A DNA stretch of 64,000 nt from a candidate division FCPU426 bacterium. GTDB lineage: Bacteria; Oederibacteriota; PGYV01; Palsa-1178. The notes under the pieces are model-generated. The model was not told where the DNA came from. It made no database searches and worked only from the letters and a program-made list of their open reading frames with translations. Positions 29,593 to 54,745 of this stretch are shown here, piece by piece. The DNA is taken from the NCBI GenBank assembly GCA_963840035.1, contig CAWIXE010000001.1, forward strand, positions 544,001 to 608,000. Direction: 5' to 3'. Positions within the stretch are counted from its first letter, which is position 1, and every line of letters begins with the position of its first letter. The translations under genes and the position numbers were made by a program.

Positions 29593-32500
29593 TTGTCTTT
29601 TAAAGCATTATCAGTAAAGGCATTTAAAAGAGCTGGTTTGATATTTGCCATGATTTTTATTATGGCTATATTTACTAATGCGGCAACAATAATATTACCT
29701 GCTACCGGTCTAATGTCCGGGGAAACCACGGATCCGAACTGGCAAAACCCCGCCGGCATAAGCGCGCCGGATTATCAATACGCTTCAGCCACAGCCAAGG
29801 ACCAGAAGCTTTATACAGCTTTTAACCAGATGCCATTGAACGGCGTGATAATTAACTCCATAACACTGCACGTCATGCACGTAACCGAGGGGACAATAAC
29901 CCCCGGGGATACAATGCAATTAAATTATTCTTTTGATAACGGCTCCAGCTGGCATTCTGCAACAACACTTCTGTCAAACATCATGGAAAATTCCGCTGTC
30001 GGCATTGACATATCTGAATTTGACCCGTGTGATGAAACCAGGGTTAATTCATTCGGGCTTGACATATCGCCTGTCAGCGATACTTTTGACCGTTTTATGA
30101 TTGATTATACATATCTGCTTGTCGATTACACCGTGCCTTCGCAGACAGTCACTTTTACCCCGAGTTTTACAGCCACCCATACAGACACTCCGTCGGCTAC
30201 GGAAACAACAACCGAAACCGCGACACAGACAGCTACGGAAACAGCGACACAGACAGCAACGGAAACGGAGACCTGCACAATAACACAAACCATTACGAAA
30301 ACACAGACAGAAACAGCGACGCAGACAATCACTCAGACCGCGACTGTTACTTATACATCCACGCCTGAGGTGCAGGCATACATTGAGCCGAAATCCGCGG
30401 TCATGGGGGATACGGTAATATATACATACCGCGTGATTGCGCGGGGCAACGGGGCCATAAATAGCCTGCTTATCACGGCGCCGGGAGTTGCCATGACAGG
30501 CGTAGTGAGCTCAAGGGGAGGGGCCATATCCTATCCGGGAGTAAACGTACAGGTTACATACGGCACCGCATGGAACACATTAAGCGACCCGAATTTTGAC
30601 GTGATAACATTTACAGGAGTAATAACAACTGCAGGCACAAAGACATTTACCGGCCTTATAAACGGCGGATTTTTATCCACGGTTCCGTCAGGGTATACAA
30701 ACCAGGTCAGCGTGTCATCCCCAACATTTACAGTAACCTGTACTGTAACACCCACAGACACGCAGACTATAACCGCCACAGATACGCAGACTTTGACGCA
30801 GACACAGACGCAAACTATAACGCAGACGGCAACAGAGACCGCGACTCAAAGCGTCACTCAGACAAAAACACAGACAGCGACACAGACCGCAACAGAAACC
30901 GTGACGCAGACAGATACGAAAACCGCGACGCAGACACTTACGCAGACCATAACGCAGACAGACACGCCGACCATGACGCAAACAGCCACGCCCAGCGTGA
31001 CGGTGACGTATACATCCACTCCGGAGGCGCAGGCATATATACAGCCTGAAACGGCAATAATGGGGGATACGGTAACATATACATACCGGGTAATTGCGCG
31101 GGGCAACGGGGCCATAAACAGCCTGCTCATCATGGCTCCGGATGTCACAATGGCCGGCGCAGTGAGCGCGAACGGCGGCGTCATAACACAGCCCGGCGGG
31201 AACATACAGGTAAATTACGGGACCGCGTGGAATTCATCAAGCGACCCGAATTTTGACGTGATAACATTTACGGGGGTAATAACAGTAACAGGCGCAAAGA
31301 CATTTACAGGGCTGATAAACGGCGGGTATTCATGCACGGTACCGGCCGGGTATACAAATCAGGTAAGTGTGGCGTCGCCGACATTTACTGCAACAAGGAC
31401 GGCAACGCAGACTGTAACACAGACAATAACACAAACCCCTACGCAGACATGCACACAAACAATTACACAGACCGCGACTCAGACCAACACTCAGACCGCG
31501 ACACAAACCGCGACACAGACGATAACGGAGACTGCGACGCAGACCATAACAGCCACAGTAACACAAACCGCGACGCAGACCGGGACACAGACCATAACGG
31601 AAACCGCGACGCAGACCATAACAAGTACAGCAACACAGTCAGCCACGCAGACTGTAACGAAGACTGCAACCGGAACCGTGACACAGACAGCAACGCAGAC
31701 AATATCACAGACAGCCACGCAGTCCATAACGGAAACCATCACCCAGACCGCGACGCAGACTGTTACGGGAACAGTGACGCAGACAATCACGCAGACAGCG
31801 ACGCAAACTGCCTCTCCCACATGCACACCGACATCATACCTTTCAGTTTCCATAGGCCCGGCAAATCCGGCGTCAGCAAATTACATGTTTGACGAGGCAA
31901 ACGCCGTCTCCATGCAGATAAGGCTTTCGGCAAATAACGGGAATGTTGGGGTTGGAAGAATAGCATTTGTATCATCAGGGTCGCTCGTGGATTATACTGA
32001 GATAACAACTGCAAGGCTTTATATTGACAGCGGTACTACGCCGGGAGTGCTGGACGGGTCCGACGTACAGGTGGGAGATAATGAGCCGTTTGTCATGTTC
32101 GTTGTCGGGGATGGCAGGGTGGTTTTTGAAAAATCACCGCTTCTTTTCGGGGTAAGCCCGGGCACGCCAGTGGACCTTATACTTGTGGTAAGCCTGAATT
32201 CAATCGGCGGAAAAAACTTCAGGGACGCGACTACGGCCGCGGACATAAACGCTTTTGACCAGGCTTTCCTGCCGGTGGTTGTATCCGGTTCGGCAACAGG
32301 CAATTTCCATAATGTCATAGCACCGACCATGACAGTAACCCAGACATTTACGCCGAGCGCCACACAGACTGTGACGCAGACGGCTACGCAGACCATAACG
32401 GAGATATTTACAAAGTCAGTAACACAAACGGTGACGCCGACAGGAACGTCAACAATAACTCAGACTATTACCGAGACCGTAACGCAGACAGCCACTCAGA

Positions 32501-35169
32501 CAATAACGCAGACCGCCACTCAGACGGCCACCGAAACAGTGACTCAGACAGCAACGCAGTCAGCAACACAGAGCGTAACTGAGACGGTTACGCAAACAGC
32601 GACGCAGACAGCCACTCAGACAATAACGCAGACAGTCACACAGACAGTAACCGGGACAATAACACAGACTGTAACGCAGACAATAACGCGGACAGTGACG
32701 CAGACTGTGACACAGACTGTAACTGAAACAGCGACGCAGACAGCGACGCAAACCGCAACGCAGACCATAACGCAAACCGCGACTCAGACGGCAACACAGT
32801 CAGTGACCCAGACAATAACACAGACAATGACGCAGACAGCAACACAGTCAGTAACTGAAACAATTACACAGACTGCTACACAGACCGCCACACAGACTGT
32901 CACCCGGACCGCGACCGAAACCGTGACACAGACGGTGACCAAGACCGTGACTGAAACTGTCACACAGACAGTAACACAGACTGCCACGCCGACTGTCACT
33001 CAGACCGCGACCCAGACCGTGACGCCTACGACCGTATCCACGCCGGCGGCATACGCTTACATACAGCCTGAAATTGCGGTCAGCGGCGACAGGACAGTGT
33101 ATTCATATAAGGTAATATCGTACGGCAACGGAATGATAGACAGCCTGTTAATCGACGTGCCGCCGGGAGTGACGCTTAATAACACCCCTTCCACATCAAT
33201 GCCGGGCACGACAGTGTCAACCCCGTCGGGAGACATACTTGTTAATTACTCCACCCCGTGGAATGTTTTCTCAGGACAGGATTTTGACATCATAACATTT
33301 GACGCCACATCATCTTCAGGGGATAAATATTACGGGAGCACTTTAAACGGGCTTGTTGACGCGCGCGGCCTGACGCTTGGCGGACGCACGCAGATAGTGG
33401 CCATATCCACCCCGACATTTACCATAACAGCCACCGCAACCCCGACTTTTACCGCGACGCAGACCATAACACAGACTGTTACACAGACGGCCACTCAAAC
33501 AGCCTCGCAGACAATCACTCAGACCATAACGCAAACCGCGACGCAAACCGCCACACAGACAATAACACAGACAGCCACGCAGACCGGGACGCAGACGGCA
33601 ACGCAGACCGGCACACAGACAATAACGCAGACGGCCACGCAGACGATAACGCAGACCGCCACACAGACAATTACACGGACTATAACGCAGACAGCGACAC
33701 AGACAGCAACGCAGACAGGGACACAGACACAGACGCAGACTGTGACACAGACCGCGACTCAGACCGGGACGCCTACATATACGGTAACAGCCACTTCAAC
33801 GCCGACATTTACAGTCACGGTGACTTCAACATTTACATATACCGTGACGCAGACCGGGACGCCGACATCTACGGCCACGCAGACAGCCACACCAACCGGC
33901 ACGTTTACAATGACGGTGACGCCTACCTTTACAGAAACAAAAACGGCAACACCCACAAACACCGCGACCCCGTCAAATACGCCCACATTTACCGTCACTA
34001 TGACTTTCACTCAGACGGCTACACCGACAATGACCGCTACCACAACTGCCACTCCGACAAATACTCCGGTATTCAGGATGATGGCGCTGGCGCCGGGAGA
34101 GACTCCGCTTGCGTCAGCACCGGGGTATACGGGCACGCCGCTTACGCAGGAAGCGGGAAAACTTGTGACCATCACTGTCAGGGCTTATGACGATGTGTTA
34201 TTTAATCAGATAAATGTTTCAAACCTTATAACCATATCCTCATCGCAGAACGCCTGGACCGTACTGGATCAGGATAAAAATATGGCGGCAGGTGAGGCGC
34301 AGTTTTATGTAAGGTTCTTAAGGCCGGGTATTTATACCATTACAGCAAGGGACTTAAACGGCGAGTTTGCGGACGCTCCGACAAACTTAATACCGGTAAT
34401 AGTTACAGGCTTCGGCAATAACGCGCTTGTATCAAGGCTCATTTATAATGTTCAGACAGCCGTTAAAGGCGAAAAGAACGCGAGGGTGATGGATTTCACA
34501 GTCACAAACCCGAACTCCGGAGGGGCCCCGTACAGGCTAACAGGAGTTACCCTTACGGTATCCACGGCAGTTAATTCCGCCATAGAGCGCATAGTCATCA
34601 GGGACGGGACAAACACACAGATAAACCAGGTACCATGGGGCGCGGTAAAGCAGGTTTTTGTGCCTGTTAACATTTTAATAGACCCGCTGGCAAGCCAGAC
34701 CATATCCATAAACCTTGACATTTTAAACAGCGCGCCGGACGGGGCTTTCAGCGTTTCAATCGTGTCAGCCGCCAATGTGCTTGTGGAAAAGCTCGACGAC
34801 ACGAGGCAGTTTGTGGAAAGCTCGACAGGCACATTCCCGTACACAACCACGTCAATAAACGTCACGTCAGGCGACCTGACATCAAGCTTCTATAACTACC
34901 CCAATCCGTTCAAAGCCGGCTCGGAGCAGACCCTGATACAGTACTTCCTGGATAAGGACTCAAAAGTATCGCTTAAGATATATGACTTAACCAGCAGAAA
35001 AGTAAAAACCATAACAGAGTCGCAGCAGCAGACAGGCGGCATGATGTACAGGTTAAGCTGGGACGGAAGAAACGACGAGAACAAGCTGGTCTTAAACGGG
35101 GTATATTACGCGGTGATTAAAATAGACGGCGGCAAGCAGTACCATACGAAGATAATAGTGGTAAAATAA
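29593..35169 (+). CDS. Giant secreted Thr-rich (TQTx)n surface protein with repeated Ig-like modules and FlgD-Ig/YPNP C-terminal domain
   Basis: Signal peptide; long TQTATQTI arrays; three related ~115-aa modules; NYPNPF..LKIYDL..WDGRND..GVYY C-terminus. Confidence 0.8.
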
Positions 35170-35679: not shown

Positions 35680-36183
35680 TTAATGTTTCTCTAATGATTC
35701 AAAATTTTGTTGTAAAAGCATATAAATACTGATTACGGTAAAAAATAAACCAATAGCGGCATCTGAAACATATATGTTTGAAAAACTAAAATGCTGAACG
35801 TTTCGCAATATTTCAACAGAGTTCTCAATTAATTTCGGTAAATAATCCACTAGACACACCAATACAAATGATTTAATAATTAAAATGGTAGTTTTTTTAT
35901 CAAAATTTTTGGCCTTTATATTTATAATTTTTTTATCGTTGTTTATAATTATATTTGATAATGTTTTAGAACCCGCAAACAAAAGCAAAACGACGATTAA
36001 GTTTAGGCATGAATAAAACAATGTTAAAAATATTGCAAGGTTTTTTTGATAATCTGTTTCAAATTTATAAACCGACCCAACAGAATATAGGGCAATCCCT
36101 AAAGATTGTAAAAAAAACAAAATGAAAACAAATGATAAAAACTTCAGCATGTATTCCATGATTTTTTTGGTTGTTATAATCAT
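35680..36183 (-). CDS. AT-rich multi-TM membrane protein
   Basis: About 4 hydrophobic helices; resembles the neighbouring gene. Confidence 0.65.
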   Translation of the reverse strand: MIITTKKIMEYMLKFLSFVFILFFLQSLGIALYSVGSVYKFETDYQKNLAIFLTLFYSCLNLIVVLLLFAGSKTLSNIIINNDKKIINIKAKNFDKKTTILIIKSFVLVCLVDYLPKLIENSVEILRNVQHFSFSNIYVSDAAIGLFFTVISIYMLLQQNFESLEKH

Positions 36184-36728
36184 TTTGATTGATTGTTCTT
36201 AGGATAGATATAATTTACTATCTTCGTTGCATAGTAAATAAAGCATAAACCAAGTATCACCATAAATATAGCCGCAACGATTTTTGATGTGCCATAAGAT
36301 AAAAATTTTATGCCTTCGGTCGACACCCCATAATCTTTGTTATAAGTAAAATATGTCAAAGATTGGGAAAACTTGTTCACATAGTTCAATAGTACAGTCC
36401 AGCCTGTTGTGACTATTATGAGCTCAAATACAGAGCTTGCGTTCTTGCCATCTTTAAAAAATGTGATCTTCATGTCGGTTTTCATTGTTTCATTGGTTAT
36501 ATATTCTGTTTTTCTCAATAAAAAATAGGAAATTATAAAATATGCAATAGGCACCAATGCCAGCAAAACAACTCTGATAGCATCGCTTGAATCAAGAATA
36601 TAATGATTATCAAGAGGTTTTTTTGCAATGATGGATAAAACACCCACCGGCAGCGTTGTACACCCTAAAATTATTGAATATATACCTAACACCTTTAAAA
36701 TTAGCTTATAAATTTCCTTTTTTGTCAT
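36180..36728 (-). CDS. AT-rich multi-TM membrane protein
   Basis: About 4 hydrophobic helices; RBS-like GGGTGGGG upstream. Confidence 0.7.
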   Translation of the reverse strand: MTKKEIYKLILKVLGIYSIILGCTTLPVGVLSIIAKKPLDNHYILDSSDAIRVVLLALVPIAYFIISYFLLRKTEYITNETMKTDMKITFFKDGKNASSVFELIIVTTGWTVLLNYVNKFSQSLTYFTYNKDYGVSTEGIKFLSYGTSKIVAAIFMVILGLCFIYYATKIVNYIYPKNNQSK

Positions 36729-36865
36729 TTATCCCCACCCCTTTTACTTACTGAATATAGGTATATTTTATCACCTTAAATCTTTATTTTCAAGAAATGA
36801 GTTGAATTATACTGTTTTAGCAAGTATATTATATATGCTTTCTGATCTATTACCCTTTACCATAT

Positions 36866-37203
36866 GGGGGCGACCGGATTCGACAGGTCTCGCGTAGATG
36901 TAAGGAGCATGCCAGTGCCCATGTCACTGTATAAACGTGGAACACGTAACTGCAAACGATTACGCTTTAGCAGCATAAGCTGCACCTCTTCTACTTCTTT
37001 TGCCTGCGGGATATAGAAGGGGACCAACAGCAGGCCGCTCAGTTAAGCGTTCTCCTTGCTTAGCTGCTAAGACTAAGGGAGAGTAGCGCCGGGTGATTGT
37101 GTCCGGTCAAGCAAACGGCGCGAAACCAAATACCGGAACAAGCATGTAGCCGCCTTTATCGAAACAGGTCTGGACGTGGGTTCAAGTCCCACCGCCTCCA
37201 CCA
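36866..37203 (+). ncRNA. ssrA: tmRNA; tag peptide ANDYALAA* (36952-36978)
   Basis: 5' GGGGGCGACCGGATTCGAC, tag GCA AAC GAT TAC GCT TTA GCA GCA TAA, 3' GTGGGTTCAAGTCCCACCGCCTCCACCA; close to smpB. Confidence 0.96.
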
Positions 37204-38694
37204 ATTATTGTTTTTCATTTTATAGAGAAATGAAAAATGATTTTTTACCGAAAAAGAAAGAGTTTTATTGGTAATCAAAGAGTTCAATAGTAGGATTTTC
37301 AAAAAATCACCCTGTTGAGCGAAAGTAAGAGTTTTATATCGATAAATAAAGAGATTCACGAGTTCAATAGTAAAAAGTGCTTTGTCGAGAGAACGACCCG
37401 AAAAACCCTTCCTCGCGTCAACCAACTGGGCCTCAACGTTCCTTATGAGGCCCATATACTCGGCGTTCTTTTCTTTCCAGAACGCCTCGTCAATCCTGCG
37501 GTCCGCCCGGTCGTCGTAAAGAGTGGAAACCCGACCAGTCAAAATTTTCTTTTCATTTTCCAACCGCGATATTGTCTGAGCGGAAATCTCATTGTCATTA
37601 CTGGCAGCGTTGGTCAGATGCTGCTTGATTGACTTTATGGCCTCGGCTGGCAAGTGTAACGGCGCAATTTGAGTGTGGAACAGTTTAGACATTTCCTCTG
37701 GTGAGATATAACAGTTCTTATGCTTACCCCTACCAAGAGTGCAATGATATCTTTCATACTTTCCCTTCTTATAAAACGTTCCAATAACCGAACACCCACA
37801 GAGCCCACATTTCAAAATACCGTTGAATGGAAACTTTACACAGCGTTCTTTTTGTTTGCGCGGGAAAACACCATAAGAGTCCTGTGCTTTTTGCCACAGG
37901 TCTCTTGAAACCAGAGGTTTGTGCGCGCCTTTATAGAACCCACCGTTCCAATTAAACTCGCCATAATAAAACGGGTCGCGTAATAACTTTGCCATTCTGG
38001 ACCTAACAACTCTCATGTTCCCTGGAAACTTAGTACCCAACTTGCGAGACCTCAAACCCTTTTGGTAGAGTATCTCTACTATCTCGTCTATGGTTTTATA
38101 CTTGGCCTTTAACTCAAAAGCCATTTTAACAAGCGGTCCACGGACAGGGTCGATATCAAGGACCTTTGTGACAGAGTTGTTAAGATAACCCAGCGGTGCT
38201 ATAGCCGGGAACTGGCCTTTCTCTACCGTAGAGTCCATACCTTTGCGGATACGTTTGGAAAGGTCGGCCGAATATTTTTCAGCCATTAAGACCTCTATCC
38301 CGAACATAAAAAATTCATCACTATCGGAATACTTATGTAGTTTCTTGTTAGTTCGGGCGAAATGAACCGTAACGCCGTCGTGTCGTATCAGTTTGCGAAC
38401 TCTGATTTTATCATCCTCATTTCTGGTCATTCTATCCGGGACATCAAAGACAAGGTGTTTGATTTTATTTTTTGCAACGTAGTCCAACATCTCTACAAAG
38501 TTCTTACGAACCCGGTCGCCGTCGTCCTTGCTGTCGTTTTTCCAAGCCGATTCAGGCCCGCGCCACAACTTTACTATTTCCAAACCGTTCAAATCCGCGT
38601 AATGCCTACCTGTTTTTTCTTGTGAGTCCATGCTTGTGTTGTCCTGTTGTTCCTCTGAAGAAACCCGGACATATAAAACCGCCAATTCTTTCAT
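37156..38694 (-). CDS. Large serine recombinase (integrase)
   Basis: LYVRVSSEEQ catalytic motif, DRMTR, APLGY recombinase domain, CGLCG..YHC Zn ribbon, coiled coil. Confidence 0.93.
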   Translation of the reverse strand: MKELAVLYVRVSSEEQQDNTSMDSQEKTGRHYADLNGLEIVKLWRGPESAWKNDSKDDGDRVRKNFVEMLDYVAKNKIKHLVFDVPDRMTRNEDDKIRVRKLIRHDGVTVHFARTNKKLHKYSDSDEFFMFGIEVLMAEKYSADLSKRIRKGMDSTVEKGQFPAIAPLGYLNNSVTKVLDIDPVRGPLVKMAFELKAKYKTIDEIVEILYQKGLRSRKLGTKFPGNMRVVRSRMAKLLRDPFYYGEFNWNGGFYKGAHKPLVSRDLWQKAQDSYGVFPRKQKERCVKFPFNGILKCGLCGCSVIGTFYKKGKYERYHCTLGRGKHKNCYISPEEMSKLFHTQIAPLHLPAEAIKSIKQHLTNAASNDNEISAQTISRLENEKKILTGRVSTLYDDRADRRIDEAFWKEKNAEYMGLIRNVEAQLVDARKGFSGRSLDKALFTIELVNLFIYRYKTLTFAQQGDFLKILLLNSLITNKTLSFSVKNHFSFLYKMKNNNWWRRWDLNPRPDLFR

Positions 38695-38850
38695 GACACA
38701 CCACCGTAAAAAGATTTGTTGTGGACTCTAACGCGTGAGTGATTTTAAGTCAAGAAATACCAATTTAGACCAAATTAATTAGTTTTTGTCTATTTTTGTT
38801 TTTGCGTAAATAATTGTTGACAAGCGGTATTTCCATGATATATTTGCGCT

Positions 38851-39068
38851 GGCAGAAAGAAATTAAGTCGCGCTTTGTTTGTGGGGTTCGCAAGCCCACA
38901 GTATGGGCGACACCCAGCCACGCGGGATATGCGCTCCGGGCTGATTAACTCATGAAGTCAGTAGACGGATTCACGAGTTTAAATCAGTGCAAGGAGCAGC
39001 GCAAATGCCCAGAAATCCGAACATCAATAACCCCTGCGTTATAGGTCTGTCCGTAATTACTGTTTGCC
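38851..39068 (+). ncRNA. Candidate structured RNA (~218 nt) of unknown class
   Basis: TTGACA (38817)..TATATT promoter; 5' GGCAGAAAGAAATTA pairs with 3' TAATTACTGTTTGCC; several nested internal stems. Confidence 0.5.
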
Positions 39069-39222
39069 TGCTCACTCATCTTATGTTCTGCAACGTGAAA
39101 CCAATCTTAAAATATTTTTAATTTAAGGTCATAAATCTGCTTATGTTTTTATATTTACAGAAGAGATAGGAACGGAAAGGACAGGAGTTCGAAGGCATGT
39201 CGTGCCGAAAAAGGAGTAGTAA

Positions 39223-40611
39223 ATGGTCAATCAAAACAACGCAAATGACAAGAATCAGAGGCCTGGTGGGACACCATTAAGTCCGATACACGGACAATGC
39301 TCCATCCCAAACGACAACCATGCCTCTGATATTTTTTTATCCCCTAAACAATACTATCGAGTATCAGTTGAAATTGCTCAATGGGCACATTCCGCTAATA
39401 TTAAATCTGCCAACCATAAAGGACAACACAAGTACGGAATCGCCGATTCTCTGGTTTACTCTGTGTTATTTGAAAGGTTTTGTTTCTATTTTAGTCAAGA
39501 CCAGTTAAAAGATGGTTGGTTCTACCAAAGTATCAGACAATTATCCAAAGCCACAGGTTTGTCTTTAAAACGAGTGCATATAGCATTGCGGTTACTTTCG
39601 AGGCATCAAGGTAATTGTATTGAGGTTAGAAAAGGCAATGCAAGTGTTGGAGAAGCAAATTGGTATAAAATTGTCAACGCCGAACTTGAACCAAGATATA
39701 CAAAAACGATAGGTTCAAAATGCAAAAATATGAATTATAAAAAAACATGCAATTACTGCTCGTATTTTATTGAATGTCAAAAAAAGAAACTTTTGATATA
39801 TATTCCCGGGAATAAAATCTTTGCACCCATAAGAAACAAATACATAACTATCCCCCCACGCATTGTAAAGACCCTTGGTATTAATGCTGCAGCGATTTAT
39901 GGAGTATTAAAAGGACAGCAAATAACAAACTTAAAGAAAAGCAAACATGATGCCCAAAAATCCATTTCTAAATTGTCCAATTTGCTTATGTTAAAACCCG
40001 ACACGGTAATAAGCAACCTAAAGAAACTTGAAAGTAAAGGACTTATAGTTATCAGCAGAAAAATGCGTGGTAATTGTAATACTTACAAAACAAACCCAAT
40101 AAACAAAGTTATACCTGTTTCCAAATCCAACGACGCCACCCCTATTCAGCCACAGCCCTGTTCCAATATGGATACAGGTTTAGTACATGGGACTACCCCC
40201 ATTCAGCCACGGGGTAGTCCCATTCAGAAACATATAATAAATAAAACAAGTAAATATACAGACAGTAAGACATTAAATACACATATAGAAATAGTTAAAT
40301 GCGGCCAAGAAGAAATGGCCGCATGTGAAGATATATTTCTTTTTGAAGAACAAAACCAAAAACCCTCAATATGTGAAGTGTCTTGTTTTGATAAGTGTAA
40401 CTCTAATGAAGGAAGTGTTTTTGGAAATGGGTTTGGTGGTTATGGATGGACCATTGCGAAGTTACGTAGCGAAGGCATGGCGGATGCCGATATCAAGTCA
40501 TTGGTTGCGGAACAACAGCAGCAGTTACAATTCGGGATAGTGCATGACTTGGTGCGTATTTTTTCTATGTCTTACGCATGTCCCAGAGAGGAGGTGGAAA
40601 ACGACAAGTAA
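39223..40611 (+). CDS. Replication-initiator-like protein with two winged-HTH regions and a Cys cluster
   Basis: GWFYQSIRQLSKATGLS..V..AL..L and SISKLSNLLMLKPDTVISNLKKLESKGLI; CxxxxxxxxCxxC between them; AAGGAG RBS. Confidence 0.6.
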   Translation: MVNQNNANDKNQRPGGTPLSPIHGQCSIPNDNHASDIFLSPKQYYRVSVEIAQWAHSANIKSANHKGQHKYGIADSLVYSVLFERFCFYFSQDQLKDGWFYQSIRQLSKATGLSLKRVHIALRLLSRHQGNCIEVRKGNASVGEANWYKIVNAELEPRYTKTIGSKCKNMNYKKTCNYCSYFIECQKKKLLIYIPGNKIFAPIRNKYITIPPRIVKTLGINAAAIYGVLKGQQITNLKKSKHDAQKSISKLSNLLMLKPDTVISNLKKLESKGLIVISRKMRGNCNTYKTNPINKVIPVSKSNDATPIQPQPCSNMDTGLVHGTTPIQPRGSPIQKHIINKTSKYTDSKTLNTHIEIVKCGQEEMAACEDIFLFEEQNQKPSICEVSCFDKCNSNEGSVFGNGFGGYGWTIAKLRSEGMADADIKSLVAEQQQQLQFGIVHDLVRIFSMSYACPREEVENDK

Positions 40612-40654
40612 AAGAAATGTACTTTGATTAACTCTACGGAGAAAGGAGTCAGTT

Positions 40655-40849
40655 ATGCGCAATAGAACGGAATGGAAAGACCCGGATGAGGTTATGTTCG
40701 GGGAGTACATAGACCCGGACGAACGTAAGTTCGAGGTCTGGCACGGCCCAGAGGAAGCCGCGGTGGCCCACTGGATTAAAACGATAGAAGAACGCAGGAA
40801 AACACCCGGATACCAGAATCTACAAGGAGGAAAAAAATGGGAAGAGTAA
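40655..40849 (+). CDS. Small hypothetical protein
   Basis: AAGGAG RBS; overlaps the next gene's start. Confidence 0.55.
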   Translation: MRNRTEWKDPDEVMFGEYIDPDERKFEVWHGPEEAAVAHWIKTIEERRKTPGYQNLQGGKKWEE

Positions 40850-41382
40850 AACAATGGGTAATAGAAATGCAAGAGTGTGGATACATAGGTGAAAAACTTA
40901 CTGTTCCAGGATACGAGGGAAAGAAAACAAAATTCAGGAGGCCAACAATGGTTGACTTTAAAGAAGAGGTTTTTGATTTAAGCATGAAGCAGATAGAAGA
41001 TGGCGATTTCAACAAAAAAGTCGAGGCAACTGCGACACTAAGCAGAGACGACCATCGGTATTGGAAAGAAGTACTTTATCAAAACGCAAGGACCGGGTAC
41101 TACTACCTTGTAGTAGAAGGCGGATGCATATCACCTTGGGGACAGATGATAGAAAACCCTTCCAATATAGTTTATTGGACCAGCATGGGCAAATTGTACA
41201 TTGAAGGAAAAAAAGGCGAGGAAAAAGTATACGCGCCATGCCAGAGGATATACACTCTCGTTGGCCAAGAGGAAGAAGCCCTTTGGATTAAAAAAGTAGA
41301 AACAGAAGAAAAAATGGGTATATGTAAAATCGAGAGATTTACCCAAGAAAAAAAGATTGAGTCCATTCCATACGTTGGGTAG
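40837..41382 (+). CDS. Hypothetical protein (paralog of 41437-41895)
   Basis: AGGAGG RBS; YWKEVLYQNARTGYYYLVVEGGCISPW motif. Confidence 0.7.
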   Translation: MGRVKQWVIEMQECGYIGEKLTVPGYEGKKTKFRRPTMVDFKEEVFDLSMKQIEDGDFNKKVEATATLSRDDHRYWKEVLYQNARTGYYYLVVEGGCISPWGQMIENPSNIVYWTSMGKLYIEGKKGEEKVYAPCQRIYTLVGQEEEALWIKKVETEEKMGICKIERFTQEKKIESIPYVG

Positions 41383-41436
41383 TAAATGCTTTAATCAAGA
41401 CAGGTTGAGAGCAAACACTCTTGCCTATACTAAAAC

Positions 41437-41895
41437 ATGAGGAGAAAAATAATGTTTGATTATGGAAACGAAATGTTCAACTTAACGGCAAGTGACTTAA
41501 GGAAAAGACCGTTCCTTAAGGTATGTGGATTCAAGGCAACTATTAAGCGCAACGAAGAAGAATACTGGGAAGAAACTCTTTATTGGAATGAATCCACAAA
41601 GAAACACTACATTGTGGGCTCAGGTGGTTATAATTCACCATGGATGGAAGTGGCTGATACTCCAACAAAAATTCTATATTGGAACAAGCATGGTAGATTA
41701 CACATTGATAGAACAATGTTGGTTGAGTACGGATGGTGCCCAGGCAGGCGGATATATCAAGTTACAACAGATGAAATGAAGCAGTGGCGTCAGGAAAACG
41801 TAAAAAAGATAGGTGATGGAACATGTAGGATTAGCGTTGTAAGGAGAACGAAGTCCAGCAGACCAGTCAAAACTAAAACTAAAAGTAAAAAGTAA
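41437..41895 (+). CDS. Hypothetical protein (paralog of 40837-41382)
   Basis: YWEETLYWNESTKKHYIVGSGGYNSPW motif. Confidence 0.7.
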   Translation: MRRKIMFDYGNEMFNLTASDLRKRPFLKVCGFKATIKRNEEEYWEETLYWNESTKKHYIVGSGGYNSPWMEVADTPTKILYWNKHGRLHIDRTMLVEYGWCPGRRIYQVTTDEMKQWRQENVKKIGDGTCRISVVRRTKSSRPVKTKTKSKK

Positions 41896-41946
41896 TTTAG
41901 TTGTGCTGACGATTAAGTGCGGAGGGATATATTCCCCAATAATCAC

Positions 41947-42132
41947 TTAATGAACTTTTGGTGACTTGCTAATGCGCGGCGAAGGGTCTGACACAATGAC
42001 TTGTGAGTGGTTCTGGTAACGGCGTAGACCGTCTGGTTGTACATATTCCTCTATCCAATACTGTTTCTTGTAGCCGGGCATTTCGAGAGTAACGACGCAG
42101 CCCTTGAAAGCATTAGGTTTATTTTTATCCAT
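41947..42132 (-). CDS. Small hypothetical protein
   Basis: AAGGAG RBS on the minus strand. Confidence 0.5.
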   Translation of the reverse strand: MDKNKPNAFKGCVVTLEMPGYKKQYWIEEYVQPDGLRRYQNHSQVIVSDPSPRISKSPKVH

Positions 42133-43057: not shown

Positions 43058-44167
43058 ATGAGTAAGAAAGCAGGTTTAGCAAAGCATAAGTTCCTTTTGG
43101 GGGAGTTATTCTGTGGTCCTGGTGGTTTGGCTTTAGGTGCTATCAGTTCCGTCATTAAAAATAAGACCTCAAACTTAACAATTGGTCATTCATGGGCAAA
43201 TGATTACGATGAAGATACATGTAAAACCTATGCACATAATATATGCCCAAAAAGTCCTGAAACAGTTATATGTGAGGACGTTAGAAAACTAAATATTGAA
43301 AAACTTCCTGAAATTGACGCGTTTGCATATGGATTCCCTTGTAATGATTTTAGTATTGTAGGAAAACAAAAAGGTTTTGATGGAGAATTTGGACCATTAT
43401 ATACATATGGTGTCAAAATCATTAATAAATTTAGGCCAAAATTCTTTATTGCAGAAAATGTTGGCGGATTAAGAAACGCAAATGAAGGCAAGGCCTTTAA
43501 AAAGATATTACACGATTTACGTAGTTCGGGAAATGGTTATGAGTTGACGACTAACCTATACAAATCAGAAGAATATGGAGTCCCTCAGACAAGACATAGG
43601 ATAATAATAGTTGGAATAGATAAGAAATATGGCATGAGATTTGAAGTTCCAGCACCTACTACAAAAGGTGACCCTATTACAACAAGGGAAGCATTTGAAA
43701 ATCCAATAATACAAAAAGATGCGCCAAATAATGATTTTACAAAAGTGTCTGATGTAGTAATCGAACGGTTAAAACTAATAAAGCCCGGTCAAAATGTCTG
43801 GAATGCCGATTTACCTCAGCATTTGAAATTGAATGTAAAAGGTGCAAAATTAAGTCAAATTTATAAACGACTTGACCCAAATAAGCCATCCTATACGCTT
43901 ACTGGCAGTGGCGGAGGTGGCACGCATGGATATCATTATGAACACCCAAGGCCATTAACTAATCGTGAAAGAGCAAGAATTCAAACCTTTCCTGACTGGT
44001 TTACTTTTATTGGTTCAAGAGAGAGTGTAAGAAAGCAAATTGGTATGGCTGTACCTGTGAAACTATCAAATATCATTTTTACATCTGTTTTGAAAATGTT
44101 TGCACATATCGATTATCCAAGTACGAAACCAAGTGTTGAAGAAGAAACGCAAGAGGTCGTATTTTAA
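43058..44167 (+). CDS. C5-cytosine DNA methyltransferase
   Basis: ELFCGPGG (I), GFPCNDFS (IV), AENV (VI), PQTRHR (VIII), RERARIQTFPD (IX), QIGMAVP (X). Confidence 0.96.
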   Translation: MSKKAGLAKHKFLLGELFCGPGGLALGAISSVIKNKTSNLTIGHSWANDYDEDTCKTYAHNICPKSPETVICEDVRKLNIEKLPEIDAFAYGFPCNDFSIVGKQKGFDGEFGPLYTYGVKIINKFRPKFFIAENVGGLRNANEGKAFKKILHDLRSSGNGYELTTNLYKSEEYGVPQTRHRIIIVGIDKKYGMRFEVPAPTTKGDPITTREAFENPIIQKDAPNNDFTKVSDVVIERLKLIKPGQNVWNADLPQHLKLNVKGAKLSQIYKRLDPNKPSYTLTGSGGGGTHGYHYEHPRPLTNRERARIQTFPDWFTFIGSRESVRKQIGMAVPVKLSNIIFTSVLKMFAHIDYPSTKPSVEEETQEVVF

Positions 44168-44185
44168 TAATAAAAGGGGTAAAAA

Positions 44186-45154
44186 ATGACTGCAGAAGAA
44201 GTTCTACTCAAAATTTCGGAATTTATCCATACAAGCCCCGAGGAAAGCGCAAAAATATTTGAAAAAGCAGTAGCGAGCAAAGAGATTACCGATGACAAAG
44301 ATACCGGTCTGATAGATGACTGGTTTAATAACAGATTTAAATCCAACATTGTATTTATAGACCAAGAAGGTTATGCAAAAATGTGCATTGATGCGCTTAA
44401 AATTGTTGGAACTATTGCGGCCACTGATTATGGAAGTAGCAGACAACGAGACCTCGGCCAATTGTGGGCAGATATGACTCGTGGATATTTAGGTGAACTT
44501 GCTTTTACAAAATTGTTGAAGGAAAGATGGGATATAGATTCCACATTAGACCACAGTGCAGGGGCATTGGACGATTTTATAAACTTAGACATCCACAAAA
44601 TCAAAAAGCCAAACGAACTTGAACGCCCTCCAAAGTTGAACATTGGAATAAAAACAACAAAATGGAATGGCATATGGCTTGATATCCCAGGAGACCAATT
44701 TAATCATTCAGATATCCATATATTTATAAAAGTTGGTACTGGTAGAGACCATTTATTTGCTTACTTTAGAGAAATAAGTGTATTTAAAGATAAAATTTTG
44801 AAAAAAGGAACTGATAGTGGCATCTTGAACCAGTCAGAAGCGGATGATTTGTATGATAAACTTCCAAAATTTCATTCCATCCCCGCATACATTTGTGGCT
44901 TTGTTGAAAGAGATAAAAAATATAAAAAACTATCATATGGTGGGTCGAAAGGTAGAAAAAATTATAAAATTGACGAATGGCATGGTCCAATGGAACCGTC
45001 TGACTTACCAATTATAAAAGAAAAAGAAGAAGTTTACGGTAAAGTTTCCTTTGAAGGTATCGGTGAATTTTCAAATAGCAAACGATACTTATTTAATGCT
45101 GGTAATTTATTATGGAAAAAAGAAGATTGGGACAAAGTTATAGAAAGGATTTAA
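44186..45154 (+). CDS. Putative type II restriction endonuclease
   Basis: Directly downstream of the MTase; GYLGELAF..D..IGIKTTK PD-(D/E)XK-like pattern. Confidence 0.7.
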   Translation: MTAEEVLLKISEFIHTSPEESAKIFEKAVASKEITDDKDTGLIDDWFNNRFKSNIVFIDQEGYAKMCIDALKIVGTIAATDYGSSRQRDLGQLWADMTRGYLGELAFTKLLKERWDIDSTLDHSAGALDDFINLDIHKIKKPNELERPPKLNIGIKTTKWNGIWLDIPGDQFNHSDIHIFIKVGTGRDHLFAYFREISVFKDKILKKGTDSGILNQSEADDLYDKLPKFHSIPAYICGFVERDKKYKKLSYGGSKGRKNYKIDEWHGPMEPSDLPIIKEKEEVYGKVSFEGIGEFSNSKRYLFNAGNLLWKKEDWDKVIERI

Positions 45155-45258
45155 AATTAGGCAACATTATCCTAGCCGTCAATTATCATAACTGCTAACC
45201 CATTGAAATAGGTTGACATTTTACCTCTGGAAATTCAACGAAAGAGGAGGTAAAATAT

Positions 45259-46833
45259 ATGTGGTTCATGAAGAAAAAGAAAGAAAAGGGAAAGAGAAAA
45301 TACACAAAAAGCGACTCCGCCGGTAAAATCTACTCAAAAGAAGAAAAACTAAAACTGCTAAAAGAATTTGAACAGATAGGTGCGCCTATTACTATGTTCT
45401 GTAAGTGGTATGGAATGGGCGTCGGTACTTTTAAAAGCTGGCAAGAAAGGTACAAAACAGGCGGTGAAGAGGGGCTGGAAGATAACCGCGGCGGCAAAGT
45501 AGCGCAGGAAGTACCGGAAGCGGTAAAAGCGGAAATAGTCAAATTAAAGCTGGAAAATCCCGGAATTGGAGTTAAGAAAATCGGGGATTATTTGATGCGC
45601 AATAAGTTCGTAAAAGTATGCCGCGACGGTATTGAAAAAGTCCTCCGAACCGACCCTCAGACAGCAACAATGGTACAGGAAAAAAGCCTGCGGCATGGAA
45701 ATAGTCAAAAGGAACCGCAGCGTTTTGAAAGAAGCAAACCCGGCGACATGTACCAGATGGATATAATGACATTTATGCTGCAGGGGCTGTACCGGATATA
45801 TGTAATAGCATGTCTGGATGATTATTCGCGGTTTGTCGTCAGTATAGGGGTATTTCGGAACCAAACCAGCGACAGGGTCCTGGATGTGCTAAAAAACGCG
45901 ATAGAAAAGTACGGCATGCCAAAAGAAGTGCTTACTGATAACGGCAGGCAGTTTGCCAGTTGGAGGGGGAAAAGCACATTTCAAAAATTCCTTACAAGAA
46001 GCGGAATAAGCCATTTGAGAAGCCGGCCGTATCATCCCCAAACCTGCGGAAAAGTTGAATCGCTCTGGCGGAATATGTACCAGGAATTACTAAGTAAAGA
46101 GCCGATATCCAGCTTTGAAGACGCGCAGGAAAAGATAGGAAAATGGGTGGAATGGTATAACTTCAAAAGGCCGCATCAGGGGATTGATGGGTTACTGCCT
46201 GCTGACAGGTTTTTCAGCGTTGAAAAGTCGGTGCGTGAAGTTATGGAAAAAGGGGCAGGAATGGTAAAAGACGCGCTAATTGTTGACCCGAGAAAATTAA
46301 AAGAGCCTATGTATTTAATCGGAAAAATAGGCGGAAAAGAAATACGGGTAATAGCAAAAGAAGGAAGTGTTATGGTTGAGGGGTTAGATGCAGTGGAGGA
46401 AAAAAAGGAAAATAAAGAAAATAAGGGGGTAATTGAAAATGGAACAGGAGAAAATTCAGCAGGAAATGATGGAACAGAAATCCACGAAGTACTACAGGGA
46501 AATCCCATACGAGGTGAAGTTTCAGGCAGTACTGAAAGTAATGGCAAAGGAAAAGAAGGTGAAACAGGTCTGCGAGGAGATGGATATATCGAGGGAGACG
46601 TTCCGGGAGTGGAAGAAAATAGCGCTGGAAGGGATAGCCAGGGCGTTCCTGAAGACGGAGAAGAGAGGCAGGAAGCCGAAGAACTACGTGAAGGAAGAGG
46701 ATCTGAGGGAAACAGTGACAAAGGCGCAGGAAGAACAGCGGAAGCTGGAGGAAAAGATCCGGATACTGGAGGAAGAAAAGAAAAAGGCGACACAGGAACT
46801 GCAGATAGCCAGGAAAGCAACGAGCTTCTTTGA
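45259..46833 (+). CDS. IS481-like DDE transposase
   Basis: HTH; RFERSKPGDMYQMD, LDDYSR, VLTDNGRQF, RPYHPQTCGKVE, YNFKRPHQGI..PADRF. Confidence 0.9.
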   Translation: MWFMKKKKEKGKRKYTKSDSAGKIYSKEEKLKLLKEFEQIGAPITMFCKWYGMGVGTFKSWQERYKTGGEEGLEDNRGGKVAQEVPEAVKAEIVKLKLENPGIGVKKIGDYLMRNKFVKVCRDGIEKVLRTDPQTATMVQEKSLRHGNSQKEPQRFERSKPGDMYQMDIMTFMLQGLYRIYVIACLDDYSRFVVSIGVFRNQTSDRVLDVLKNAIEKYGMPKEVLTDNGRQFASWRGKSTFQKFLTRSGISHLRSRPYHPQTCGKVESLWRNMYQELLSKEPISSFEDAQEKIGKWVEWYNFKRPHQGIDGLLPADRFFSVEKSVREVMEKGAGMVKDALIVDPRKLKEPMYLIGKIGGKEIRVIAKEGSVMVEGLDAVEEKKENKENKGVIENGTGENSAGNDGTEIHEVLQGNPIRGEVSGSTESNGKGKEGETGLRGDGYIEGDVPGVEENSAGRDSQGVPEDGEERQEAEELREGRGSEGNSDKGAGRTAEAGGKDPDTGGRKEKGDTGTADSQESNELL

Positions 46834-46939
46834 AAAAAACGATGAAGACGGCGCAAAAAAAAACGCCAATATGCGGAAAGTGTTAAAAGAAATATACTCA
46901 GAAGTGCCGAAGAAACCGTACAAAACGGAGGAAGTATAA
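46433..46939 (+). CDS. IS3-like OrfA (HTH + coiled coil)
   Basis: YEVKFQAVLKV..KKVKQVCEEMDISRETFREWKK, followed by a coiled coil. Confidence 0.8.
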   Translation: MKMEQEKIQQEMMEQKSTKYYREIPYEVKFQAVLKVMAKEKKVKQVCEEMDISRETFREWKKIALEGIARAFLKTEKRGRKPKNYVKEEDLRETVTKAQEEQRKLEEKIRILEEEKKKATQELQIARKATSFFEKNDEDGAKKNANMRKVLKEIYSEVPKKPYKTEEV

Positions 46940-47904
46940 AGGCGTATTTTGATTCAATCGGGGTTCCAAGGGAGTATTATTATGCGTGGAAAAAGAAAGA
47001 TACCCTGGAACCCCAAAAGACAGGGCCGAAACATGCGCCGTGGGCCTTGTCTGGTGAAACAATACTCCGGGTGCTGGAATTAAAACGGAGGTTTTCGGAA
47101 ATATCAACTAATTATGTTTTGGCAATAAAAGCGGGTATATCGCCAAGCAGCGTTGCAAAAATAGTTTATGAGTATTTTGGGCCCAGGAAAAAGCAAAAAG
47201 CGGGAAAGAAAGAGTACAAGTCAGTTGAATGGCTAAAAAAGCATGTCAGCTGGGCGCTAGATACGATTAAAATACGCTGCGAAGAAGGGTATGTGTATGT
47301 TCAGCTGGTATTTGAGGAGTACTCAAGGTGTGTGCTTGGTTGGATTATGAGTTATTCAAATACCGGTGAAAAGGCGAAAATCCTGCTTGAACGCGTGATG
47401 AACGAGCAGGGAATAAAACCGCTTGTGGTTAAAACTGACAGGGGTTCTGAGTTTCAGAACGAAGTATTAATAAGTTATTTGAAAGAAAAAGAGATTCTCA
47501 CGATGCCCAGCCCCGGGCATTATCCGCTTTTCAACGGGAAACTGGAGCGCGAAAATCAGATATTTGAGAAATATCTGAAAACTGAAAAAGGAGGGTTAAA
47601 TTACGAAAAAGTATACGCCAAATTTGAAAGAGCGATTTATGAGATTAATCACGAAATGCCGCGGCGTATATTTGACGGCAAAACAAGCGCTGAAGTTTTC
47701 AAAAACGGAGAAATATACAAAAACGAAGAAAAGCATGAGCTAATTAAAAAAGCTGAAAATGCGATTGCGGAAATTGAAAAACAGAAAATACCGGGACTGG
47801 ATAAACTTGACGTTGTGAGGAAGGCCGTGGTAAAATCAGTTGTAGATATGGGGTTGTGTTTGATCAAATCCGGAGAACAAAATGTCAACCAATTTGCGGG
47901 GTAA
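46855..47904 (+). CDS. IS3-like OrfB DDE transposase, probably reached by -1 frameshift at A9 (46855-46863)
   Basis: Frame open from 46846 to 47904; WALDTI, KTDRGSEF, NGKLEREN; lies in the -1 frame relative to OrfA. Confidence 0.8.
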   Translation, partial: KKKRQYAESVKRNILRSAEETVQNGGSIKAYFDSIGVPREYYYAWKKKDTLEPQKTGPKHAPWALSGETILRVLELKRRFSEISTNYVLAIKAGISPSSVAKIVYEYFGPRKKQKAGKKEYKSVEWLKKHVSWALDTIKIRCEEGYVYVQLVFEEYSRCVLGWIMSYSNTGEKAKILLERVMNEQGIKPLVVKTDRGSEFQNEVLISYLKEKEILTMPSPGHYPLFNGKLERENQIFEKYLKTEKGGLNYEKVYAKFERAIYEINHEMPRRIFDGKTSAEVFKNGEIYKNEEKHELIKKAENAIAEIEKQKIPGLDKLDVVRKAVVKSVVDMGLCLIKSGEQNVNQFAG

Positions 47905-47907
47905 AAA

Positions 47908-48447
47908 GTGACAATAATTGACAGGCAGGACAATCATGAAGACCCTGAGTTTATCGCAGCGTGTAAGAAGAGCGATGCTGAAAAGGAACTGAGAGAAGCC
48001 AACTTAAGACGCGATTTTGGGGCAAAAGTTCTCAGTGAGCAAGGCAAAGATAAGACAATTGTGTTGGATAAGGTTGGTATGATATTCCTTGCGAGGTCTG
48101 GTAAGGCACTATATACGACCTCTTGCGAGATAGAGGTAGATGGCGGATACACGGCCGAGATAGGGTTTAGAGAGGACACATACCCGGAACTGTTGCGGAT
48201 ATTGAAACAAAGGTTACCTGAGCATTACAGGACAAAGATAACTGACAAACTTGAAAAGGAGTACACAAAGCCCATATACATACCCTGGTTCACAGCGTTT
48301 GACTTTCGAATCGAAGCAGTGTTAGGTTCGCCATTACACCATCAGGATGGCAGAGAGTTTATCCCTTTCTATGCCACTAAGGTTGAGGAAATTAGAGTGG
48401 AATACAGTAAACGTAAGAAGAGGCAGTCAAAAAAACCACAAGTTTAG
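47908..48447 (+). CDS. Hypothetical protein, 5' end lies inside the IS right end (likely truncated)
   Basis: Predicted GTG start falls within the terminal IR. Confidence 0.5.
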   Translation: MTIIDRQDNHEDPEFIAACKKSDAEKELREANLRRDFGAKVLSEQGKDKTIVLDKVGMIFLARSGKALYTTSCEIEVDGGYTAEIGFREDTYPELLRILKQRLPEHYRTKITDKLEKEYTKPIYIPWFTAFDFRIEAVLGSPLHHQDGREFIPFYATKVEEIRVEYSKRKKRQSKKPQV

Positions 48448-49782: not shown

Positions 49783-49943
49783 CCAGTTATTTCTAAGGTA
49801 ATTATTTACAAGTTATATCAGTTCGGTTCTCTGGCGCCGACAAACTGCGCAACCGTTCGTAGGTGGAATCGAAATCATCGGTGGTAAACCAATTTTGAAG
49901 TGAGGCAAAACTCGGACACTCAAAATATCCCACCGCCTCCACC

Positions 49944-49980
49944 AAACAAAAACATCCGCGAAAGCGGATTTTTTTGTTTG
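49944..49980 (+). terminator. Rho-independent terminator (original tmRNA terminator displaced by the island)
   Basis: AAACAAAAACATCCGC-gaaa-GCGGATTTTTTTGTTT directly after attR. Confidence 0.75.
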
Positions 49981-51197: not shown

Positions 51198-51380
51198 ATG
51201 GATAAGTCAAAAGCATTATTGGATGAGATTTATTTAAAAGCCTCAGAGTCGTCAAATATATATGAACTCATCATGAACCTGATGAAAGAGACATCCTTAA
51301 AACTGCGGGCGGCCGGCATCAATGACATGTATTTATCTTCCGGGGTTGTAAGTAAACCCGGGGAGAGCGGGCAATTATGA
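51198..51380 (+). CDS. Small hypothetical protein
   Basis: GGAGG RBS; stop overlaps the next start (ATGA). Confidence 0.5.
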
Positions 51381-54300: not shown

Positions 54301-54745
54301 CGCGTTTACTTCAACCAGGACAAGCACTCCTGCTTCCACGCGGACTTTTACCGCCACAAGAACATCAACAACAACACCTGTAAACACTCCTACCACGACG
54401 GTAACAAAAACACAGGATGGAAAACTCGGGATACAGGACACCGTTGCGTATCCAAATCCAATCAGTAAAATGGACAATACAGGGATTAATGTCAGCTTTA
54501 AACTTTCGGCAATTGCCACAAAGTTAAAGTTCAGGCAGTTTACCACCGGCTACAGGTTAATACGGGAAGTATCGTTTACAGCCGGCGAGGTAAATGGGGG
54601 CCTGGACTCAGGGATTAATGTTATCACCGTACCCGCAAAATACTTAAAGGGATTATCCGCCGGCACCTATTATTATGTGCTGTCAGCTGAGGATGGCCGG
54701 GGGAATAAAACTTCTTCAGGGCTTAAAATTGTCATCGTATTATGA
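51377..54745 (+). CDS. Secreted multimodular beta-1,3-glucanase: GH16 + CBM6 + GH64-like + Thr-rich linker + YPNP C-terminal domain
   Basis: [21 protein letters not shown] (GH16); [15 protein letters not shown] (CBM6); [22 protein letters not shown] (GH64). Confidence 0.88.

Follow-up and report, generated by a model that had tools for sequence, protein, structure and literature searches.

A tmRNA-site island and its integrase-to-Rep gap

The window, as we call the whole 64,000-nucleotide stretch of a candidate division FCPU426 contig analyzed here, contains a 12.7-kb island bounded by two copies of an 18-bp repeat. The first copy (attL, 37187 to 37204, + strand) lies at the 3′ end of the tmRNA gene (36866 to 37203), and the second (attR, 49928 to 49945, + strand) marks the far end of the island. 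A large serine integrase of 512 aa (37156 to 38694, − strand) has the Pfam Resolvase, Recombinase, and Zn ribbon domains and matches PHROG 95. Its frame passes through attL, the final 9 residues being read from antisense tmRNA (37156 to 37204); on the excised circle, the integrase tail would differ and be longer. The predicted integrase promoter (TTGACT-17-TAGAGT, 38725 to 38753, − strand) has the same TTGACT-17 layout in the elements of genomes G095 and G094 described below. Beyond a gap of 528 bp lies a Rep-like winged-helix replication initiator of 462 aa (39223 to 40611, + strand; Pfam HTH_36), which matches four phage replication-initiator families (PHROG 428, 186, 678, and 270).

Further cargo of the island comprises an Xre gene, a C5 methyltransferase with a neighbor of no known family, and IS481-like transposases. 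Since no phage structural gene was detected among the island ORFs scanned, the island reads as a satellite-like or reduced element. The C5 DNA methyltransferase and the 322-aa protein that follows it, which has no family match, occupy 43058 to 45154; the latter is probably the restriction partner of the former, and the G095 island has a methyltransferase-like pair in the same zone. The IS481-like insertion (45166 to 47934) has 36-bp imperfect terminal inverted repeats, two transposase-like ORFs, and an overlapping 168-aa ORF. Two tandem paralogous genes 3′ of Rep (40837 to 41382 and 41437 to 41895; 33% identity over 134 aa) gave no significant Pfam, PHROG, or NCBIfam match. Very long Thr-rich repeat proteins (29593 to 35169 and 51377 to 54745) flank the island on both sides.

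In the integrase-to-Rep gap, an earlier note had placed a single promoter-driven RNA domain of 218 nt (38851 to 39068), proposed to be an unrecognized RNA or a leader controlling replication or excision. The promoter was found as described there: TTGACA-16-TATATT with an extended −10 TG (38817 to 38844, + strand) scores 11/12, the top value among 17 consensus matches in 36000 to 42000, and the +1 position is inferred at G38851. In both the window and the G095 island, the space between the integrase and this promoter is free of genes, and apart from a short ORF no gene lies between the promoter and the window Rep. Nor was an intrinsic terminator-like site found on the + strand from 38851 to Rep. 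With a near-consensus promoter facing Rep and neither a gene nor an intrinsic terminator between them, the integrated island would thus need a brake.

The segment, which is single-copy in the genome, is GC-rich as noted earlier (50% versus 32% and 35% in the flanks), and all of the helices listed for it are present in its minimum free energy (MFE) fold (−72 kcal/mol). This fold is better than that of most shuffled controls (z −3.0; 2 of 200 shuffles as good), but the reverse strand folds equally well (z −3.0). Because of this equality, and because 4 of the 22 windows tiled over the island reach a z of −2 or lower on the + strand, folding by itself is modest evidence, and the support is carried by comparison with a homolog.

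A leader conserved in two islands

Among the 99 genomes of the phylum, blastn revealed one true relative, located on contig C61 of G095 (78% over 145 nt, E 3e-23). By blastn and model R1, 2 of the 99 genomes carry the RNA, as do 2 of the 24 in the order. The G095 copy lies between a tmRNA-site serine integrase, 62% identical to that of the window, and a Rep-type gene that also matches phage replication-initiator families, while the two Rep proteins are weakly related (25% over 61 aa). G095 keeps the leader promoter, the 5′ hairpin (H1), and the long arm (H3), the latter two with compensatory changes. Its promoter has identical hexamers, TG, and 16-nt spacing, and likewise scores 11/12, although the spacer sequence differs.

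The degree of conservation is high. In the core, 114 of 150 columns (76%) are identical between the window and G095, close to the 79.5% of the tmRNA; at four-fold sites of the adjacent integrase, 35 of 111 (32%) are identical, neutral positions of the two islands being saturated with changes. Comparison of both loci by blastn matches the tmRNA, the integrase, and the RNA only, leaving the flanks and the Rep genes unmatched. The RNA sequence thus appears to be either under strong selection or recently exchanged on its own, the latter being made less likely by the unalignable flanks.

Three hairpins were compared on the + strand. H1 (38867 to 38911), with an internal loop, has two compensatory pairs and one G-U change, and its apical loop is not conserved. 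H2 (38915 to 38943), a hairpin predicted to form early and having a CAGCC/GGCTG outer stem, retains 10 of 10 pairs in both copies, with one compensatory change, a single G-C/A-U swap. H3 (38941 to 38987) has an invariant CTGATT/AATCAG base, a middle stem that covaries (two compensatory changes and one G-U), and an invariant tip consisting of GTC/GAC, a 4-nt loop, and a GGA bulge. The leader alone folds with a z of −3.2 in the window and −2.8 in G095. When the MFE fold of the window only was projected onto G095, 4 of 44 core pairs were changed on both sides yet still paired (P = 0.005, permutation), while overall pair retention from the same single homolog was not significant (33 of 44, P = 0.11), in part owing to slippage of the alignment near the Shine-Dalgarno (SD) sequence. 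A model derived from, and fitted to, both sequences has 39 pairs, of which 5 carry compensatory and 3 one-sided changes. With just two copies, covariation is thin. Two elements of the earlier fold, the 5′/3′ helix closing the domain and ACGCGGG/CCTGCGT, exist in the window MFE and are not kept in G095. As judged from the sequence comparison, the segment is a real, selected, and uncatalogued structured leader, which two islands are known to carry.

Could the conserved dyads act as DNA, in the form of an origin, a single-strand hairpin, or a Rep-binding array? The equally good fold of the reverse strand in the window would agree with such a role, as would the mixed strand-diagnostic changes (about four G-U on the + strand and two would-be G-U on the − strand). 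The dyads, however, follow a conserved promoter immediately and with constant spacing, iteron-like repeats sit inside the Rep genes instead, and the G095 copy folds better on the + strand (z −2.8 versus −2.0), all of which make a DNA function improbable.

Searches for catalogued families and further relatives were negative within their scope. With Rfam 15, the tmRNA alone reaches the gathering score in the window, and at E ≤ 10 the three matches in 38600 to 39300 are chance matches that do not overlap 38851 to 39068, in agreement with the earlier view of the RNA as unrecognized. A likeness to the IS605 omegaRNA or HEARO was considered and dropped together with bridge-type guides, as there was no Rfam match and the 13 island ORFs scanned included no TnpB, IscB, or IS110. 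The patterns tried revealed no further homologs in collections of GTDB, viral, phage, or plasmid sequences. The scan of 185,579 GTDB genomes returned 31 matches, one of them real, namely, the contig of G095. When viral contigs were scanned with six patterns, the numbers of matches were 0, 2, at least 120, 9, 2, and 10, with no RNA among the loci tested (80 loci in the case of the scan with at least 120); one partial match of 25 nt and 9 bit was the search pattern itself. Searches of phages and plasmids by blastn yielded chance matches only, and a metagenome scan by integrase yielded three loci, none with the RNA. In three DNA sequencing runs, no reads covered 38888 to 39235, a result that speaks neither for nor against the RNA. 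No relatives of the window Rep were found, while the G095 Rep has 42 related proteins, for which no genomic context was available. In the literature searched, which did not extend to the supplements of RNA-motif surveys, we found no description of the element or of such an RNA motif.

Both copies adjoin related tmRNA-targeting integrases, which would be expected if the RNA guided or decoyed the serine integrase through mimicry of the tmRNA T-arm, a resemblance pointed out in the earlier note. The T-arm-like loop, however, is not conserved in G095: it is the most changed part of H1 even though both islands use the same tmRNA site, and the likeness is therefore attributable to chance. None of the att-region 7-mers shared with the RNA recurs in both elements, and the RNA is transcribed away from the integrase. 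Moreover, G094, whose integrase is closer (66% identical) and uses the same tmRNA site, has no RNA in the 1.2 to 1.6 kb upstream of the gene; the same element on two metagenome contigs (L056 and L057) likewise has the closer, intact integrase and no RNA upstream. The G094-type element looks decayed, so that the absence of the RNA there argues merely moderately against a tie to the integrase. Just upstream of the intact integrase in G094 (locus L022, contig C101, 490 to 1040), we observed a Rep-like middle fragment that bears four iteron-like repeats, together with a direct duplication of ~55 bp. A 12-mer common to the RNA and the integrase gene was discarded, as it occurs in the window alone. 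We thus consider an integrase guide or decoy very unlikely, and a link to excision or att recognition, the other half of the function suggested earlier, is not supported by the sequences. The half concerning replication is consistent with the conserved promoter, the fold, the position before Rep, and the lack of an Rfam family.

A putative ribosome site, a short ORF, and predicted alternative folds

Contrary to the earlier impression that the segment has no ORF, AAGGAG followed by 8 nt and ATG (38991 to 39007, + strand) opens a 38-aa ORF (39005 to 39121, + strand), which takes up the final 64 nt of the domain proposed earlier. G095 has AGGAG, 7 nt, and ATG, and AGGAG-N7/8-ATG CCC AG is kept in both copies despite length changes in the spacers on both sides. 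A comparable SD-ATG site occurs by chance in 1.9% of shuffled 218-mers, and the anti-SD matching AGGAG is present at the host 16S tail. In place of a single 218-nt domain, the conserved leader thus probably extends from +1 to about +155 and runs into the short ORF, the last third of the proposed RNA being coding. H2 also contains an 8-codon ORF whose start and stop positions coincide in the two copies; it was discarded because its SD spacing is unusable.

The window ORF is predicted to encode a polar N terminus followed by one hydrophobic helix. Among shuffled open frames, 0.17% attain its best 19-residue hydropathy (2.27), as do 1.1% of 6651 genomic ORFs of 30 to 45 aa, and the peptide is modeled as a single helix (residues 10 to 37, pLDDT 80). 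The peptide has no family match in Pfam, PHROG, NCBIfam, or Atlas. In G095, the ORF encodes 20 aa and is polar (best hydropathy −0.55), a length difference of 2 nt causing the two frames to diverge beyond codon 10; identities by codon position (15, 13, and 9 to 11 of 20) are suggestive at most. The G095 integrase (locus L051 on C61, 6854 to 8386) contains one internal TAA stop at about codon 266, possibly reflecting a pseudogene or an assembly error, and for this reason decay or an assembly error is possible for the G095 ORF as well. Between the leader and Rep in the same locus, a 50-codon ORF with a strong SD (6220 to 6372) lies antisense and has no counterpart in the window. From the stop of the short ORF to Rep there are about 100 nt in the window (39121 to the ATG at 39223) and about 290 nt in G095, distances that imply no translational coupling.

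The hydrophobic peptide brings to mind a type I toxin mRNA, the leader being its 5′ untranslated region: the 38-aa membrane-type peptide would kill cells that lose the island and would be held off by a putative antisense RNA, the G095 copy having decayed. The hydropathy, in the top 1.1% of genomic ORFs, and the one-helix model fit such a peptide; sequestration of the SD by an upstream anti-SD, predicted in both copies, is a hallmark listed in the cited part of the T1TAdb description (PMC8594479), and the internal stop in the integrase would be in line with decay of the G095 island. On the other hand, the 20-aa G095 ORF is not hydrophobic, the window peptide belongs to no family in the four collections named above, no terminator follows the window ORF, and no conserved minus-strand promoter was found within or behind the leader when the window and G095 were compared. 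In each island, a near-repeat of that island's H1 loop region is located at the integrase promoter (38716 to 38730 in the window; about 6750 to 6770 in L051), through which a divergent transcript could pair with H1. This complementarity is not significant (P = 0.06 and 0.09), and a pair taken across the two elements scores equally. In G095, the ORF region can form a strong duplex with the divergent strand, which was set aside for want of a window counterpart. We regard a type I toxin as possible but unlikely.

Our preferred reading concerns the accessibility of the ribosome site itself. The anti-SD sequence CTCC (38934 to 38937, + strand; CTCT in G095) is enclosed by H2, and in both copies its CTC pairs with the GAG of the SD in a predicted long rod; H2 and the rod are predicted to be mutually exclusive. 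The invariant run GGGCTGATT accordingly has alternative partners, either CAGCC upstream (H2) or AATCAG downstream (rod). Simulated folding of the growing transcript gave, for both copies, an H2 probability of at least 0.9 at the majority of lengths up to nt 135 and of at most 0.02 at nt 145 to 185, with the rod present from nt 145. The cost of opening the start region is 14 to 16 kcal/mol in the window, compared with a mean of 7.3 and a 95th percentile of 12.5 kcal/mol for genome starts (150 sampled of 1129), while the 10 kcal/mol of G095 is within the ordinary range. Forcing H2 lowered this cost from 15.7 to 9.8 kcal/mol (window) and from 10.1 to 5.8 kcal/mol (G095) in the shortest transcripts, but the gain was nearly gone in two of the four longer ones (14.4 to 13.3 and 10.3 to 9.6), and forcing H2 itself costs 4 to 7 kcal/mol. 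An OFF state, in which the SD is buried in the rod, is thus reasonably predicted by the models, while the ON state is a hypothetical candidate.

A possible course of events is as follows. H2 would form first, up to about nt 135, and hold the anti-SD; once AATCAG and the SD have emerged, the RNA would refold into the rod and bury the ribosome site. Whatever holds H2 (a protein, an antisense RNA, or a helper-phage signal) would free the SD and turn the leader ON. With no ribosomes on the short ORF, the host Rho factor could end the transcript within the 100 to 290 nt before Rep, in a manner similar to P4 kil, and the OFF state would silence the downstream replication genes while the island is integrated. 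The host encodes Rho, and a C-rich, G-poor stretch is strong in G095 (C − G up to 14 per 60 nt) but weak in the window (up to 8, a value that 10% of genome windows reach). Weak promoter matches (9/12) closer to Rep are present in G095. Taken together, we tentatively favor the view, with confidence that falls somewhat short of even, that the region is a conserved 5′ leader of ~155 nt acting in cis, gating the short ORF and, through polarity, also the Rep operon.

Much of the same evidence could also describe a stand-alone or processed non-coding RNA of about 150 to 200 nt with a protein ligand or a function in trans, the SD-like motif being kept for structural purposes. The conservation at the level of tmRNA includes unpaired stretches, as is typical of tertiary folds and protein sites, the RNA has a conserved promoter of its own, and neither the peptide nor much of the Rep protein (25% over 61 aa) is shared. 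Yet its 3′ end is not defined by any terminator and the closing helix is not conserved; no protein family that could serve as a partner is common to both islands, integrase and Rep-type genes excepted, and the two copies have no trans target in common. Moreover, invariance is to be expected of bases that serve two alternative helices, and part of the conservation is explained in this way. A free-standing RNA is, in our estimation, as unlikely as the toxin.

It is tempting to extend the cis-acting leader one step further. The invariant tip of H3 might sense a helper-phage or host factor cotranscriptionally and trap the early hairpin, thereby releasing the membrane peptide and Rep; the repressor-free, satellite-like islands would then control their replication through an RNA switch of a new class, with no sequence relationship to CI, C4, or IsrK. 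This extension is speculative, and we consider it slightly less likely than the toxin or the free-standing RNA.

Relation to known systems

The leader can be compared with several systems in which RNA structure governs replication or toxin genes. Plasmid rep leaders under antisense control include R1 CopA/tap, ColIb-P9 Inc/repY, and the pT181 attenuator. As in these plasmids, a structured leader and a short ORF precede a replication initiator here; unlike them, the island has no overlap between leader peptide and rep start, no intrinsic attenuator, and no conserved promoter for a counter-transcript. Type I toxin mRNAs, as presented in the cited parts of the reports on the timP switch (PMC13000454) and the T1TAdb criteria (PMC8594479), share with the leader the sequestration by an anti-SD and the alternative long-range pairings, as well as, in the window only, a small hydrophobic peptide. 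In contrast to type I toxins, the peptide is not conserved and has no family, no antitoxin or terminator was identified, and Rep follows in the same direction.

With respect to the layout of the integrase at the tmRNA attL, the island resembles the Dehalococcoides ssrA islands, in which, according to the cited passages (PMC3146451), the DsiB serine integrase on the reverse strand adjoins attL in the tmRNA with its 3′ end crossing att. The likeness is one of layout: the Dehalococcoides islands reportedly have no replication genes and a six-gene integration module (PMC3146451, in the part cited), while Rep and the leader follow the integrase here.

In satellite P4, a constitutive transcript is described as ending early through RNA pairing, read-through yielding Kil (PMC10111431, in the part cited). 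Like the P4 CI/seqA/kil leader, as portrayed in the passages cited (PMC10111431 and PMC4825925), the region places a constitutive-type promoter, a structured leader, and a small ORF in front of replication genes. By analogy, too, this is a small integrated element without structural genes for which RNA-level shut-off may be supposed. The differences are considerable. The CI/C4 model (RF01695) has no match at E ≤ 10, whether in the region or in the genome as a whole (150 of 487 candidates scored). Unlike in P4 CI and P1 C4, the middle module of the leader shows no significant complementarity to H1, the start, the ORF, or downstream sequence (P 0.10 to 0.96 in all eight tests), only G-U-rich helices of 5 to 8 bp being common to both copies. 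No Bro/Ash-family ORF or alpA was found in the island, which has a serine integrase and a lambda-O-like Rep in place of the tyrosine integrase and primase of P4.

The closest functional likeness, on the predicted folds, is to isrK-orf45 of Gifsy-1. Its first ~180 nt fold in two ways, one of which hides the ribosome site of a short ORF, and the nucleotides of this ORF are better conserved than its peptide, as far as the cited sections describe it (PMC4825925); alternative leader folds are predicted in both copies here. Here again, membership does not follow. The isrK model (RF01394) has 20 sub-threshold matches in the genome (150 of 1184 candidates scored), none at the locus, and the leader lacks an intrinsic terminator that would release a short isoform. 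Instead of the ~30-nt complementarity of the isrK 5′ end to its ORF, H1 shows none of significance to the start, the ORF, or downstream sequence (P 0.07 to 0.79 in all six tests), and the ORF stop does not overlap the next start (39121 versus 39223; about 290 nt apart in G095). Lacking a model match, a significant internal antisense duplex in any of the 14 tests, a terminator, and coupling, the leader thus belongs to neither the P4 nor the isrK family.

The functional class, a structured leader that gates a short ORF, is already known, while the sequence is uncatalogued. RNA-only control of replication genes was previously known from enterobacterial P4-type satellites and prophages. If the proposed reading is true, such control reaches the serine-integrase islands of an uncultured phylum by means of an RNA unrelated in sequence and fold, and the leader of 160 nt is small enough to be tested directly in a reporter fusion.
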